A stretch of 64,000 nt of DNA from Candidatus Aenigmatarchaeota archaeon (GCA_016187385.1 JACPJU010000001.1:204010-268009); one strand, 5' to 3'. Positions 13,739 to 27,266 are shown, counted from the stretch's first letter. Numbers and translations are program-made. Notes: a model not told the origin generated them from the letters alone.

Positions 13739-15184
13739 TCAAGATGGAATCTGCTCTCCACCAAGAACATAAAAGGTCAATTCAAGATTTCTCATCGCGC
13801 TTGTTTTTTCCACTTTATCATACAGAGGATACCTGATTTCCTTGCCCAGAATCGAGACATAAACATTCGCATTTGCTGAATAGTCATAACTGCATGTTTT
13901 CTTGTACAAATTTTGGGGTTTAATGCAGATCGCAGAAATATAAGATAAGCACTTTCCATTGGGCTGTTCTGCGGAACCTGAAGGGCAGTCACCAGTTATT
14001 TCACGATCGACTTCTTTTACACAGTGTGCACCATCATATGTATAGTCTGACCTCTCGCACCCCCGTTGCAAACAACAACTTTCGGGAGCACTAATGTCTT
14101 CAATAGTGCATGTTGCTTCTTTGTTCGTATCTGCAGCTACTTGCGTTAAATCATTGTTTGTCTTCAATGTTACATCGGTATCGATGGTATTGTATTTGTT
14201 GTTCAGACTGAGGATGTTATTCACTACATCAGTTCTGAAGTTCGTTAAAACATTCGGACAAGCTTCGTCAAGCATTTCTTTCTTGCTCTTCGAAGGTATA
14301 GAGGAAGTATAACATTCTTCGTATTTGATTGATTTGCAAGCATCCGGTATTCTTGACTCTGCTGCATCTATCTGCTCCTTCACAACATCCTTGTCGATAA
14401 AAAGTTCTTTTCCTTTCGAAATTAATTTCGCTATTCTCAGATTCAAAATTTTTTTAGCGTTAGGACTGTCGGAGATTTCTACATTTGTTTCTGTGAATTT
14501 AGTTTTTTCCGATGATGTCGCGGTCACGTTTACGCGATTGCCTTTAATTTGTAGCTTGACTGCAGTAGTGGGAGATTGCACGTGTATTGTATTTGTTTTT
14601 TCATTGATGGCGGACACATATTCGTTGAGCATAGTCTGGGTTTTCTGTCCCAACACATTGTCAAATTCAGACGAAGTCGACAAGCATGTACCGCACTTGG
14701 CTGTTTCTGTGTCACATTCTTCCGGAGATATACCGCACCAATCGTTGAGTATGTTCGCTTGATTTGAACGATCTGTACTCCAGCCGTTTTGTTGATAAAA
14801 CAGGAGAATGTCATTTCTGTTATTCAGAACGCATTCTGCACAAGACGTACTCAATCCATATGTAGGCATGCATGTTTTCTCGTATGTTCTCCAATAAGGC
14901 AGGGTCTCGTAAGGCAGGACATTGAACGACTCTGCATAGCACCCGGACACAGAATATTCGCCGTATCTCAAAACATCGTACGCAACTTGGTATGTTGAAT
15001 AAATTAGAGATTGTTCAATTCCACGCTTGGCAAATTCTATCTGGCTTACTCCCTCGCGTATGATGCGTTCATTTTGGTCTCTGACAACACTGTCTATTTC
15101 ATATGCGACGTTGAAAGAAAAGACCGACACGATTGTTAACATGCTTACGAATGCCACCAATGCTATCTCTACTGCCCCTTTCAT
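13739..15184 (-). CDS. Pilin-like secreted Cys-rich protein
   Basis: N-terminus MKGAVEIALVAFVSMLTIVSVF (class III signal-peptide-like), many Cys pairs, 481 aa. Its start codon overlaps the stop of the upstream gene (ATGA). Confidence 0.5.
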   Translation of the reverse strand: MKGAVEIALVAFVSMLTIVSVFSFNVAYEIDSVVRDQNERIIREGVSQIEFAKRGIEQSLIYSTYQVAYDVLRYGEYSVSGCYAESFNVLPYETLPYWRTYEKTCMPTYGLSTSCAECVLNNRNDILLFYQQNGWSTDRSNQANILNDWCGISPEECDTETAKCGTCLSTSSEFDNVLGQKTQTMLNEYVSAINEKTNTIHVQSPTTAVKLQIKGNRVNVTATSSEKTKFTETNVEISDSPNAKKILNLRIAKLISKGKELFIDKDVVKEQIDAAESRIPDACKSIKYEECYTSSIPSKSKKEMLDEACPNVLTNFRTDVVNNILSLNNKYNTIDTDVTLKTNNDLTQVAADTNKEATCTIEDISAPESCCLQRGCERSDYTYDGAHCVKEVDREITGDCPSGSAEQPNGKCLSYISAICIKPQNLYKKTCSYDYSANANVYVSILGKEIRYPLYDKVEKTSAMRNLELTFYVLGGEQIPS

Positions 15185-25029: not shown

Positions 25030-27266
25030 TTCACCCTCTCCTTGAACCAGTCAGACCATTTGTCGTAAATCATCTTCGAATCCAACGCCCCTACTTCTTT
25101 CTTGACTTGCTCGGAAATTAAATGAAACATTGAATTAGATTCGACTATGTAATTGGCCTCCAGGATATCGTCTCTACCTGTCTTTGTGGCTATGTCTATC
25201 ATAGTTTCTTTTATCTTTGCTCTCAATAAAATGTTGTCCCAGACAGCGTCCCAGTGACCGTGCCATTCCCGCACCCTTTTAGAAATTTCATTCAACACTT
25301 GAGATTCGCCGTCGATGAGAACATCTGTCGGTTTCAGCCTGTCTTCCTTCGCGGAATACTCCATCAAGTTGACAAACCCTCCTTCATCCAATGGGTCATT
25401 TTTCCAGTTCTTTCTCACTTCTGTCAATTCTGTTACTCTTCTGAACCTATGCAGTCCGTCAGGGGATTTCAAAAGATTGCACACAGTTATCAGATCCAAT
25501 GCCTTGAAGCTTGTCGGAGGAACTCCCAAATCATGAACAATCCTGTCGTAAACACCGTAAGCGGATTCGCCGTGCACTGTGCCCGCGACTACATTCGACA
25601 TCCCGCCTATTCGCATGGCTTCGAATAATGCTATAGCCTCGACGCTTCTGACTTCGCCTATAACCAGAACAGAATCGCCCAATCTCAATGCTGTCCTCAA
25701 TGCTTCTGCTGCGGGCAGTTCAGTCTCAACACGAGTAATAACAGAACGCGACTTCATCCTTTCTATGTTGTATCCAAGGGTTCTGATTTGGGGAACGGAA
25801 ATTTCCAGAGTATCTTCTGTGACAATTATCCTGAACTTTGACATTATCTCGAGTATCAATGAATTCAAAAGTGAGGTCTTGCCTGATCCCCTTCCGCCGG
25901 CTATGAGCATCGCACGTCCGCCGTCAATAATGAAACTCATCAATCCCGCATACAGCGGATCGAACATCTTATTCTTGATGAACAAAGGATACGTCCACGG
26001 TTTCTCTCTGTGACGCCTGAATGCGAATGCCAGTCCTTCTGGGGACAACGTTCTTGTGATGGCTGCCACACGCGCCCTTCCACCAGGAACAGTTAATTCT
26101 GTATCCAGAACAGGATTCGATTCGTCTAGAGGCCTGCCTGAATAAAGCCTGAATCTTGTTGCCCATGACTCTGCATCATCCATTGTAGGCATAAGATTTG
26201 TCTCGCATTCTTCAAAATCGGACTGTGTGACGTAGATTGGAGTTCGTCCTATTGGAGAATTTACGAATATATCTTGTATATTTTCATCTGCGAGCAGGAT
26301 TTCCAAGATGCCGAAACCTGCCGTATAACGCGCCAGGATGTCGGATAATTCTTCGATTTCATCAGCCGTCAAGCTCACATTCATGCCTGTGGCTATGTCC
26401 CTTACCAGATCCCTTCCAAGATTTTTGAACATCTCGCGTGACTTGTCAGGCTCTACCGATTCAGCTTCTGTAGGCCTGTGAGCGGACAAATATCTTCTTG
26501 CCGAATCTAGAATAGTGTACTTTTCTTCGCTGAGAACAAACTCGCGAGGTATCACATGATAAAGATGACGAACTTTGTTAGGAAGTTTGTATATTTCGAT
26601 TTTCGCGTTTCCAACAGAATATTTGTTAACCATCCTTGCTCCTTTAGGTATGTTAAGCATGAGCCTCGTCAACATGAAGTTTGGCCTGACTATGGGAGAG
26701 AATAATTCGCGATAAATGTCCCTAGTGCCTGGCTGATAATCATGAAGTATGGGAAGTGCTTTTTGTATCAGAGTGCATTCTTCGAGTATCTGTTTGATTG
26801 GAATCAATGCGCTGTCAAGATAATGTGTGAAGCACACCTTCTGCTCGAATGGTGCTGTTTTCTCGAGAACTTTGTTGTTGTTCACCATCTTTACTGTCTG
26901 CATGTACGCCGCTATCGGATCTCTTCTCAAAAGTTGCAGAACCATGAATTGCAAGTCATTCAATCTTTTCGGGAAAAGCTTTTCGCATTGCGGAGGACCA
27001 AGATTTTTCAGGCTTATTATCCTGTCTATGTTCAATATCCTGTTGTAAGCATCTGCTATTTCTCTCAACAACCGCGTCTGTTCGGAATCGTATTCATTCT
27101 CTCTCGCTTCAATCAAAACTATTCTGTCAGCGTCCTTTACTTCCAGAAGTTTGTCGATGACAACAGCCATTGTTGCATCTGAATCTTCTATGCTCGGAGC
27201 AATAGCCCACCTTGCACAATTTATTCTCAAAATTCCGTCTACAACTTCGTATTCTACGCCAGCCAT
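25026..27266 (-). CDS. Type II/IV secretion system ATPase (FlaI/PilB/TadA/VirB11 family) with extended N-terminal region
   Basis: Walker A LIAGGRGSGKTSLLNSL, Walker B/Asp box SVLVIGEVRS, His-box-like region; 746 aa. Confidence 0.85.
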   Translation of the reverse strand: MAGVEYEVVDGILRINCARWAIAPSIEDSDATMAVVIDKLLEVKDADRIVLIEARENEYDSEQTRLLREIADAYNRILNIDRIISLKNLGPPQCEKLFPKRLNDLQFMVLQLLRRDPIAAYMQTVKMVNNNKVLEKTAPFEQKVCFTHYLDSALIPIKQILEECTLIQKALPILHDYQPGTRDIYRELFSPIVRPNFMLTRLMLNIPKGARMVNKYSVGNAKIEIYKLPNKVRHLYHVIPREFVLSEEKYTILDSARRYLSAHRPTEAESVEPDKSREMFKNLGRDLVRDIATGMNVSLTADEIEELSDILARYTAGFGILEILLADENIQDIFVNSPIGRTPIYVTQSDFEECETNLMPTMDDAESWATRFRLYSGRPLDESNPVLDTELTVPGGRARVAAITRTLSPEGLAFAFRRHREKPWTYPLFIKNKMFDPLYAGLMSFIIDGGRAMLIAGGRGSGKTSLLNSLILEIMSKFRIIVTEDTLEISVPQIRTLGYNIERMKSRSVITRVETELPAAEALRTALRLGDSVLVIGEVRSVEAIALFEAMRIGGMSNVVAGTVHGESAYGVYDRIVHDLGVPPTSFKALDLITVCNLLKSPDGLHRFRRVTELTEVRKNWKNDPLDEGGFVNLMEYSAKEDRLKPTDVLIDGESQVLNEISKRVREWHGHWDAVWDNILLRAKIKETMIDIATKTGRDDILEANYIVESNSMFHLISEQVKKEVGALDSKMIYDKWSDWFKERVK

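Follow-up and report, generated by a model that had tools for sequence, protein, structure and literature searches.

A type IV filament-like operon of an Aenigmatarchaeota archaeon with hydrolase-type modules on candidate minor pilins

Bacterial modular type IV pilins, such as PilB and PilC of S. sanguinis, comprise more than 1,200 proteins with 264 architectures (Raynaud et al. 2021, PMC8179133). Their modules include lectin and vWA domains as well as one of peptidase type, and these modules have been proposed to be exposed at the tip of the filament (PMC8179133). In archaea, the Sulfolobus bindosome (Bas) places substrate-binding proteins that bear class III signals on type IV filament machinery (Sivabalasarma & Albers 2026, bioRxiv 10.64898/2026.04.22.720090), and hydrolases or enzymes are not mentioned in that study. 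For the large extracellular murein transglycosylases encoded by Woesearchaeota and Pacearchaeota, bacteria have been put forward as the targets (Castelle et al. 2021, PMC8204110; Vigneron et al. 2022, PMC9723730). Peptidoglycan hydrolases of the M23 type from archaea are bactericidal, as shown for a haloarchaeal M23 protein (PMC12352652); the same study considered only Sec and Tat signals, did not mention pili and reported that 68% of the archaeal peptidoglycan hydrolases are without a recognised Sec or Tat signal peptide. Here, we analyzed a gene block at positions 13739-27266 of a 64,000-nt stretch of DNA from a Candidatus Aenigmatarchaeota archaeon (GCA_016187385.1, JACPJU010000001.1:204010-268009; this whole stretch is hereafter referred to as the window), which a first-pass annotation had described as a type-IV-pilus-like locus. 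[quoted passage not shown]

As in the bacterial modular pilins, the modular proteins of this locus combine a small pilin-like module, a short linker and a functional module, and the largest of them (720 amino acids, aa) appears to contain extra domains inserted in the pilin beta-sheet, as GspK of type II secretion does. However, the bacterial proteins possess the IPR012902 prepilin motif and mostly binding modules, whereas the proteins described here are archaeal, start with a K-[G/A] signature and carry a cargo that is of hydrolase type by its sequence. The bindosome likewise relies on an archaeal filament ATPase and a platform protein to display non-pilin proteins with class III signals and a hydrophobic helix. 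In contrast, its cargo consists of solute-binding proteins, usually encoded beside ATP-binding cassette (ABC) transporters, whereas the cargo of this locus is of hydrolase type and fused to orthologues of minor-pilin-like proteins. The ATPase is no BasE equivalog (45 bits relative to a cutoff of 1000) and solute-binding domains were not detected in the locus with Pfam. The locus may work in a bindosome-like manner, but it is no member of the Bas family. The murein hydrolases of DPANN and other archaea also present SLT/GH23 and M23 domains in organisms without murein, with a patchy and horizontally acquired distribution, but they are stand-alone or Sec/Tat-secreted proteins (Woesearchaeota, Pacearchaeota, Halobacteria and Nanoarchaeia) and none is linked to a pilus. 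Finally, the pilin-lysozyme fusions of type IV secretion systems (T4SS) in Candidate Phyla Radiation (CPR) bacteria (PF18895 with SLT_3, PF18896) also unite a filament-subunit N-terminus and an SLT_3 domain. T4SS pilins (VirB2/TrbC-type) are nevertheless unrelated to type IV pilins, and the lysozyme-like domains linked to bacterial T4SS are thought to open the wall of the producer itself, which an archaeon does not have.

No description of pilin-fused peptidoglycan hydrolase-type modules in an archaeal pilus operon was found in the full-text literature that we searched. The architecture had been presented at first as undescribed, and within the literature searched this holds for the specific combination of domains; its elements—modular pilins, bindosomes, DPANN transglycosylases and archaeal M23 hydrolases—have all been published. 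We regard the architecture as real, non-random and recurrent, and as a variant of modular pilins, functionalised archaeal filaments and DPANN peptidoglycan hydrolases rather than a new category.

The genes of the block are all encoded on the minus strand, as initially claimed, and 98% of the block is coding. Our analysis of open reading frames (ORFs) yielded 11 genes where 13 had been counted previously. Their spacing is that of an operon: 4-nt ATGA overlaps occur three times, one overlap is of 1 nt and the gaps range from 12 to 138 nt. Two genes were given corrected internal starts, both of them probable (MRKA at 22616 and MKGE at 17987, the latter for the gene 17340..17987). The assembly ATPase (25026..27266, minus strand; 746 aa) belongs to the TadA/FlaI/GspE superfamily and presents the Walker A motif GGRGSGKTS. 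This protein matches Pfam T2SSE (1e-16) and its best matches in PDB are afGspE (2oap; 1e-24), CpaF and FlaI. NCBIfam models for TadA (1.6e-35) and FlaI (5.4e-34) also recognise it, in agreement with the FlaI/PilB-type identity given by the first-pass annotation, but every score is under the equivalog cutoff and the protein is thus a divergent member of the superfamily.

The second core component is a platform protein (22755..24707, minus strand; 650 aa with about 8 predicted transmembrane segments), which we assigned to the T2SSF/TadC/FlaJ family by orthology. The protein itself has no Pfam match, and when its family profile was compared to PDB, nothing emerged beyond coiled-coil noise of the apolipoprotein type and a match to GspF that was very weak. 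Nineteen of 27 full-length orthologues (29-67% identical) do match Pfam T2SSF (PF00482; best 2e-8) and the platform gene always follows the ATPase gene in related loci, so that the FlaJ/TadC-like label proposed for this protein is retained. Judging from these homologies, the core of the locus is a TadA/FlaI-type ATPase and a T2SSF-type platform of an archaeal type IV filament system.

The distribution of this core was then established from orthologues of the ATPase gene, which were found at 79 loci of the genome collection (50-82% identity). Nearly all of these loci belong to metagenome-assembled genomes (MAGs) of Candidatus Aenigmatarchaeota and the farthest orthologues are those of Nanohaloarchaea; identical copies of the locus were also present in three Logan assemblies. 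A platform orthologue was identified at 65 of the 79 loci, and ORFs whose N-termini resemble class III signal peptides (hereafter, class-III-like) were found downstream at 52. Among close relatives the gene order is kept: ATPase, one or more small pilins, platform, a small protein, a large protein, two small proteins and four minor-pilin-like proteins. The conservation of the ATPase-platform pair with pilin-like ORFs downstream supports the interpretation of the locus as a filament machine.

The enzyme modules are found on two of the minor-pilin-like proteins. The first of these (17987..19225, minus strand; 412 aa) starts with a pilin-like module (aa 1-130; 18836-19225), which is followed by a Cys-rich beta region (aa 131-224), a PPPP linker and a C-terminal lysozyme/lytic-transglycosylase-like domain of 188 aa (aa 225-412; 17990-18553). 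Its orthologues at five related loci (L004, L006, L007, L033 and L075) are just 121-126 aa long and align to aa 1-130. The second protein (15181..17343, minus strand; 720 aa) presents a pilin-like module that is split in two (aa 1-105 and aa ~697-720) around a poly-Pro linker (P11), an M23-like domain (aa 120-290; 16474-16986), a GH5 domain (aa ~305-620; 15484-16431) and a Cys-rich tail. In the alignment, its orthologues at L004, L007 and L033 (142-163 aa) match the first ~105 and the last ~25 residues, and they share with it the C-terminal stretch FNT..VLPYN..SLV..I. Because both ends of the 720-aa protein match these bare orthologues, the enzyme block of ~590 aa corresponds to an insertion within the module.

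The relatives without modules are the closest ones, with ATPases 80-82% identical. Modules were found at both of the same operon positions in another Aenigmatarchaeota MAG (L018), where the orthologue of the 412-aa protein (276 aa) matches Pfam SLT_3 (1.7e-9; 38.5 bits for a cutoff of 27) and the orthologue of the 720-aa protein (529 aa) presents a GH5 insertion at the same site. A few other large class-III-like proteins of related operons possess lectin, CARDB or crystallin domains. The presence of modules in few lineages and their absence from the closest relatives show that the cargo is variable and lineage-specific. According to the alignments, the enzyme modules are grafts on, or inserts into, small and conserved minor-pilin-like proteins. 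The anatomy of the locus as a type IV filament operon with pilin-like subunits bearing enzyme modules is supported: the arrangement of pilin N-terminus, linker and enzyme read initially is mirrored by bare orthologues of 121-163 aa, with the modules added after the PPPP and P11 linkers.

The second line of evidence concerns the N-termini. In all nine ORFs other than the ATPase and the platform, a hydrophobic helix of ~20 residues comes after an initial M-x(0-2)-K-[G/A]; this includes the small proteins for which an N-terminal transmembrane helix had been claimed. Only two other ORFs of the window present this pattern. The K of the leader is invariant in orthologue alignments, and G or A comes next. 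Two of the nine are candidate major pilins: a Cys-rich protein of 94 aa (24745..25029, minus strand; N-terminus MKGGFPVGYIVAIVLGVILIALIGYLLI) and a second copy of 96 aa (19552..19842, minus strand; N-terminus MMKAVAVPYVIAIVLGIAVIGLIGYLLI). These paralogues form a phmmer family with 40 ORFs of related loci, whose N-terminus is strongly conserved (M.K[GA]..PYIIA.xLG...GYW) and which often occurs as 2-3 tandem copies per locus. Tandem copies of this kind are expected of major pilins. We rejected ordinary Sec signal peptides as an explanation for the N-termini of the accessory proteins, since the hydrophobic stretch is of transmembrane length (~20-25 residues), starts 3-4 residues from the Met and is not followed by an AxA-type site.

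We further analyzed the enzyme modules themselves. The M23-like domain of the 720-aa protein has no match to Pfam PF01551. A search for its homologues with word indexes, using M23-like as well as lysozyme-like fragments, found nothing, but an exhaustive search recovered 90 M23-like homologues, and 9 of 35 homologous domains match Peptidase_M23 weakly (best 6e-5). The domain belongs to a divergent sister family of M23. An AlphaFold2 (AF2) model built from an alignment of 51 sequences reached a predicted local distance difference test score (pLDDT) of 88.6 and a predicted TM-score (pTM) of 0.81. When this model was compared to PDB with Foldseek, the top 20 matches were all M23 proteins (probability 1.0; TM-scores of 0.46-0.57 by target), among them LytM, lysostaphin, Csd1-3, LytU and a phage endolysin. 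The model predicts an M23 beta-sheet fold with confidence, and this part of the initial M23-like call stands. Four residues of the M23 active site, D169, H226 (xHL) and H260 and H262 (HxH), are invariant or near-invariant across the 51 homologues. H145, which belongs to a CxHC motif in an upstream Cys-rich insert, is also nearly invariant in the family. Catalytic activity of the domain is plausible but unproven.

Members of this family (16474-16986 in the window and proteins P0002-P0090) are usually C-terminal domains of large proteins and score under the Pfam M23 thresholds. The closest homologues combine class-III-like N-termini with canonical SLT or M23 domains. Their partner domain is SLT in P0003 (3.8e-20) and in P0054 (5.5e-12), which starts with MKGE, and SLT_2 in P0002 (2.3e-6), and P0007 presents a second, canonical M23 domain (3.8e-23). 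The contigs of P0002 and P0003 are archaeal by their markers (Alba, CarS-like CDP-archaeol synthase and FEN1), and both proteins are clustered with more proteins bearing class-III-like N-termini. P0054 belongs to a run of genes whose products start with MKG, and the gene before it shows a motif that, by eye, looks of LysM type. The recurrence of class-III-like N-termini with SLT and M23-like domains on other contigs indicates that this association is not an accident of the contig analyzed here. A more distant homologue is encoded by Candidatus Daviesbacteria (CPR) and is the sole homologue with an identified source organism. These results define an M23-like family that is divergent and common to DPANN and CPR organisms, in which a CxHC insert is present and the canonical His of HxxxD is absent.

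Two contigs carrying such runs were also surveyed for neighboring genes. Positions 1-6421 of L088 contain a run of MKG.. N-termini with one member bearing SLT and M23-like domains, and a motif resembling LysM by eye is present in the upstream gene. Positions 7190-14265 of L083, a contig that is archaeal by markers, contain a run of ..HKG.. N-termini, again with one SLT and M23-like member. No ATPase gene was found near the class-III-like runs on these short contigs.

The lysozyme-like domain of the 412-aa protein is the weakest of the module assignments, and its identification relies on the motifs, on a profile alignment to SLT_3 and on the operon position. Aligned with hhalign to the SLT_3 family, the domain reached a probability of 79.7% (E 1.5e-5) across the ES...GIFQLN region. 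The lysozyme-like motifs are found in canonical order: E266-S267, G301-IFQLN, N335-IRIGIQFL and H375-NG. The placement of these motifs was taken from hhalign and manual reading, as MAFFT misplaced the Glu-Ser pair in a three-sequence alignment. The ordered motifs and the presence of SLT_3 at the orthologous position of L018 make it likely, from sequence, that region 17990-18553 encodes a lysozyme or lytic-transglycosylase-like fold. The lytic-transglycosylase-like assignment made at the outset is thereby moderately supported, its score in Pfam remaining sub-threshold.

A second lysozyme-like domain is encoded next to the operon. An 881-aa polytopic membrane protein (11093..13738, plus strand), convergent with the operon and possibly associated with it, presents an SLT_3-type domain at 13199-13735 (plus strand; Pfam SLT_3 1.9e-5, 25.5 bits for a cutoff of 27). 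The middle region of this protein is kept beside the operon in L006, L007, L033 and L075. The lysozyme-like domain shares 46% identity with the C-terminal part of P0091, a protein with an N-terminal Pfam T4SS_pilin domain (PF18895) and a lysozyme-like C-terminus. The combination of SLT_3 and T4SS_pilin is, we presume, associated with CPR bacteria, and on this basis the SLT_3-type module of the 881-aa protein and P0091 may have been passed between bacteria of the CPR and archaea of the DPANN.

The assignment of the GH5 domain is solid. It matches Pfam Cellulase (PF00150; 6e-14, 52.6 bits for a cutoff of 23.5), and all its catalytic motifs are present: R360, N442-E443 (NEP), H510-Y511, E540 (IGESW) and W592. 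The GH5 assignment of the first-pass annotation is thus confirmed, with both catalytic Glu in place. Its nearest relatives in PDB are endo-beta-1,4-mannanases and its precomputed annotation is PF26410 (GH5_mannosidase). By these relatives, the domain is mannanase-like and no murein hydrolase, and the claim that it is directed at peptidoglycan was abandoned.

We propose the following working of the system. The ATPase and the platform would build a filament or a short pseudopilus out of the small, Cys-rich and duplicated pilin-like proteins, once their leaders have presumably been cleaved by a prepilin peptidase. The four conserved minor-pilin-like proteins at the end of the operon may prime assembly and sit at the tip, as the minor-pilin and GspHIJK tip complexes of bacteria suggest by analogy. 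Two of these minor subunits, now modular pilins, would display the enzyme cargo: one would have gained the C-terminal lysozyme/lytic-transglycosylase-like domain, and the other would have received the M23-like metallo-endopeptidase and the GH5 beta-mannanase-like glycanase as a GspK-style insertion in its globular head. Fixed on the filament, or at a minimum anchored at the cell surface by the pilin helix, the enzymes would act locally, where the filament or cell surface meets another cell or debris. The lysozyme-like and M23-like modules would probably cleave the glycan strands and peptide cross-links of bacterial peptidoglycan, and GH5 a mannan-type surface or matrix polysaccharide. Possible outcomes are attachment, breaching of a bacterial partner or prey and the release of wall fragments as food.

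Several results weigh against this proposal and lower its probability. A first set concerns the pilins. Only one of the nine N-termini, MKGDAVS of the gene starting at 19886, passes a strict FlaFind-type regular expression ([KRDE][GA][ALIFQMVED][ILMVTAS]x3), a pattern that we applied by hand and that was trained on euryarchaeal and crenarchaeal, not DPANN, proteins. The leaders are very short (2-3 residues). When 141 small ORFs of related loci were compared to Pfam, the only pilin-type matches were a weak one to Pilin_N and an equally isolated weak one to Arch_flagellin. The profile of the candidate major-pilin family returned only generic transmembrane matches in PDB, and the 94-aa protein (24745..25029) has no pilin homology in Pfam or PDB. 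PHROGs and NCBIfam scans of the accessory proteins gave no match for any of them. The single-sequence AF2 model of the 412-aa protein shows a helix at residues 7-59 followed by beta-strands, although its pLDDT is only ~40. The class III appearance that had been noted for the large proteins accordingly stands for the loose pattern, shared by all nine proteins, and falls short with the strict pattern and with pilin homology. The pilin identity of the accessory proteins is therefore read, from their sequences, on pattern and context only. We also found no A24 prepilin peptidase among the polytopic ORFs of the window (ORFs with at least 4 predicted transmembrane segments, of which those without a prior Pfam assignment were scanned and two were read by eye). 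The prepilin peptidase is often encoded elsewhere in the genome, and this absence from the window is not decisive.

A second set concerns the modules. The lysozyme-like domain of the 412-aa protein scores below the Pfam SLT cutoff (E=0.032; 14.2 bits for a cutoff of 21.3), and hhalign comparisons to the canonical SLT domains of P0003 and P0054 were not significant (~1%). No homologue of the domain was found by word-index search or metagenome scan, and it has no match in PHROGs, NCBIfam or PDB; the single-sequence AF2 model of the whole protein (pLDDT 38) is unusable for this purpose. Across related operons, enzyme domains were recognised in only 2 of 64 large class-III-like proteins, both from L018. 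In the M23-like domain, Ala stands in place of the canonical His of HxxxD, which is the first zinc ligand; this holds for the window protein and for the consensus of the family (AxAID). The initial M23-like call is weakened on this point. The domain may instead be a non-catalytic binder comparable to EnvC, NlpD or SpoIIQ.

This last possibility extends to the whole set of modules, which could be adhesins: degenerate LytM-type and lysozyme-like folds would bind peptidoglycan or glycans, and the locus would encode a sticky attachment organ rather than a lytic one. The loss of the HxxxD His in the family is in line with this explanation, as is the top PDB sequence match of the M23-like profile, which is SpoIIQ, a degenerate LytM protein. 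The lysozyme-like domains also present a Ser at the place of the second catalytic Asp of c-type lysozymes (read by eye), and the other modules of related operons are of binding type (Laminin_G_3, CARDB and crystallin). However, of the five residues that canonically form the M23 active site, four show no or almost no variation among the 51 homologues, and H145 of the CxHC motif might replace the missing ligand. The Glu-Ser pair of the lysozyme-like domain and both catalytic Glu of GH5 are present, and lytic transglycosylases need only a single catalytic Glu. We consider purely adhesive modules improbable and retain the display of hydrolase-type enzymes as the preferred interpretation.

The mannanase likeness of GH5 suits polysaccharide foraging as well as attack, and it introduces another explanation. 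The class-III-like N-termini could be anchors only, at the surface or in a short pseudopilus, so that the modules would be surface-tethered foraging enzymes, a form of enzymatic bindosome that digests necromass and mannan to feed an auxotrophic cell with amino sugars, peptides and sugars and needs no living bacterial host or prey. Sulfolobus offers a parallel with the sugar-binding proteins that its Bas system displays. Endo-beta-mannanases are typical foraging enzymes, and several M23-like homologues with class-III-like N-termini stand alone, away from any ATPase, as bindosome substrates do. The ATPase also matches BasE weakly (6.5e-12), and archaeal filament machineries with class-III-signal substrate-binding proteins are widespread (bioRxiv 10.64898/2026.04.22.720090). 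The BasE match is nonetheless far under its cutoff (45 bits for 1000), and the enzyme modules are carried by conserved minor-pilin orthologues inside the operon instead of by separate substrates. No ABC transporter or sugar-uptake genes adjoin the operon, and lysins that break through intact sacculi typically pair a glycan-strand cleaver with an endopeptidase for the cross-links. Overall, foraging by anchored enzymes appears unlikely, although less so than purely adhesive modules.

The target of the displayed enzymes is a distinct question. A weapon or attachment organ aimed at bacteria, as envisioned initially, is plausible, but a bacterial target would be an extrapolation from the domains, and debris scavenging or surface anchoring fit the data equally well. 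No evidence of any kind points to a partner organism. The four terminal minor pilins could form the tip of an extendable filament that, in some Aenigmatarchaeota and other DPANN, is armed with a set of lysins (a glycan-strand cleaver, a cross-link endopeptidase and a surface-glycan hydrolase) and acts as a contact-dependent drill that opens the walls of living bacteria; we regard this stronger version as doubtful, though somewhat less so than foraging.

A target other than bacteria was also considered, in the form of either the envelope of an archaeal host (pseudomurein cross-links, S-layer or matrix glycans) or the remodelling of the own envelope for the passage of the filament. To our knowledge, all cultivated DPANN have archaeal hosts. 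[quoted passage not shown] Against this, the genes of the window suggest no synthesis of murein or pseudomurein and instead encode AglB/STT3 and glycosyltransferases of N-glycosylation type, and the beta-1,3 linkages of pseudomurein resist lysozyme-type enzymes. Most relatives possess the operon without any enzyme module, which indicates that assembly does not depend on them. The domains to which the modules are most closely related are SLT and M23 domains of bacterial type, with CPR (Daviesbacteria) among the distant homologues. A non-bacterial target is thus very improbable, the least probable of the explanations that we weighed against the display of hydrolase-type enzymes on minor subunits.

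The remaining proteins of the operon, all encoded on the minus strand, are class-III-like. The small membrane protein at 22407..22616 (69 aa from MRKA) has an internal start, MRKAVFGKVLTLIISLLLASLALLLIYFF, that fits the pattern, and its orthologues (60-119 aa) occupy an equal operon position in L007, L008, L018 and L033. The 95-aa protein at 19252..19539 (8 Cys; N-terminus MLKAVTAQTLFFIGVAIITLFFIIAIF) is found at the same position in relatives with 37-52% identity. The largest protein (19886..22366; 826 aa, 36 Cys; N-terminus MKGDAVSAVMQLFLMVAVLAVAV) is a probable adhesin-type subunit, whose N-terminal 265-400 aa are kept in relatives. Both features reported for it previously were recovered: a beta/gamma-crystallin domain at 20300-20482 (Pfam Crystall 6e-6; 26.7 bits for a cutoff of 25) and Cys-rich repeats, which are three in number, ~110 aa long and marked by the motif LD..GDK..KC.F at residues 338, 442 and 555. 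A minor-pilin-like protein of 215 aa from MKGE (17340..17987; N-terminus MKGESYITPLFSLMITGVIATVLAF) overlaps the upstream gene by 1 nt and has orthologues of 168-221 aa at the same position in ten related loci. The last gene of the operon (13739..15184) encodes a Cys-rich protein of 481 aa (N-terminus MKGAVEIALVAFVSMLTIVSVF). Its orthologues (350-634 aa) keep the terminal position in relatives, and we found no recognisable domain in it and no match in Pfam, PHROGs or NCBIfam.

Several observations were made in the surroundings of the operon. The window is archaeal by its genes, which include those of AglB/STT3, of topoisomerase VI (A and B) and of a tRNA-His with an intron. A protein with a class-III-like N-terminus (MLKGQAKVDEFAWIILGAVGFVLLITLVF) is encoded at 1-577 (minus strand), far from the operon and with its C-terminus beyond the window edge, which indicates that such substrates are encoded outside the operon too. 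A LAGLIDADG_3-domain protein (7713-8366, plus strand) lies directly upstream of the tRNA-His gene (99 nt, 8348-8446) and slightly overlaps it. Positions 8723-9313 (plus strand) encode a protein homologous to Lit, the lipoprotein intramolecular transacylase of bacteria (Pfam 5e-11), a bacterial-type envelope enzyme that is unexpected in an archaeon. Just upstream of the operon and divergent from it, a MazE-like antitoxin and a PIN-domain toxin are encoded at 27790-28454 (plus strand). Between this pair and the operon, a conserved protein of 142 aa (27306-27734), which appears coiled-coil by eye, was found with the ATPase gene in all three of three Logan contigs. Further away, four tandem paralogous polytopic membrane proteins (29185-31746, plus strand) share the N-terminal motif LPF.L...R..IFGD, and the last of them (30793-31746) ends with a Peptidase_S74 intramolecular-chaperone domain (Pfam 8e-17; PHROG tail-fibre families 1e-26). 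This domain is typical of phage tail fibres and endosialidases. We considered a prophage or virus origin of the operon, since Peptidase_S74 and lysin-type domains occur nearby, and rejected it because the operon is syntenic and chromosomal in many Aenigmatarchaeota and Nanohaloarchaea MAGs, is flanked by housekeeping genes (Topo VI, AglB and PCMT) and lies in a region of flat GC content.

The physical interaction between DPANN archaea and bacteria is an open question, and the murein-degrading genes of these archaea have so far been interpreted only speculatively. The locus described here connects domains of peptidoglycan-hydrolase type with one particular surface machine. With it, the idea of modular pilins reaches archaea and cargo that is enzymatic, and also covers insertion of a domain within the pilin head. 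The fusion to a pilin hints at a delivery route for archaeal peptidoglycan hydrolases without a Sec or Tat signal, and a class III signal with a pilin fusion could explain some of these hydrolases. The M23-like, lysozyme-like and GH5 modules are short and clonable domains that can be assayed for activity and target range. If the modules did form a drill for living bacteria, this would be the first pilus-delivered lytic device acting across domains of life, and genomic evidence of a direct kind for bacteria as the hosts or prey of some Aenigmatarchaeota. More generally, these modules are testable candidates for the means by which such archaea might attack bacteria, attach to them or use them as food.

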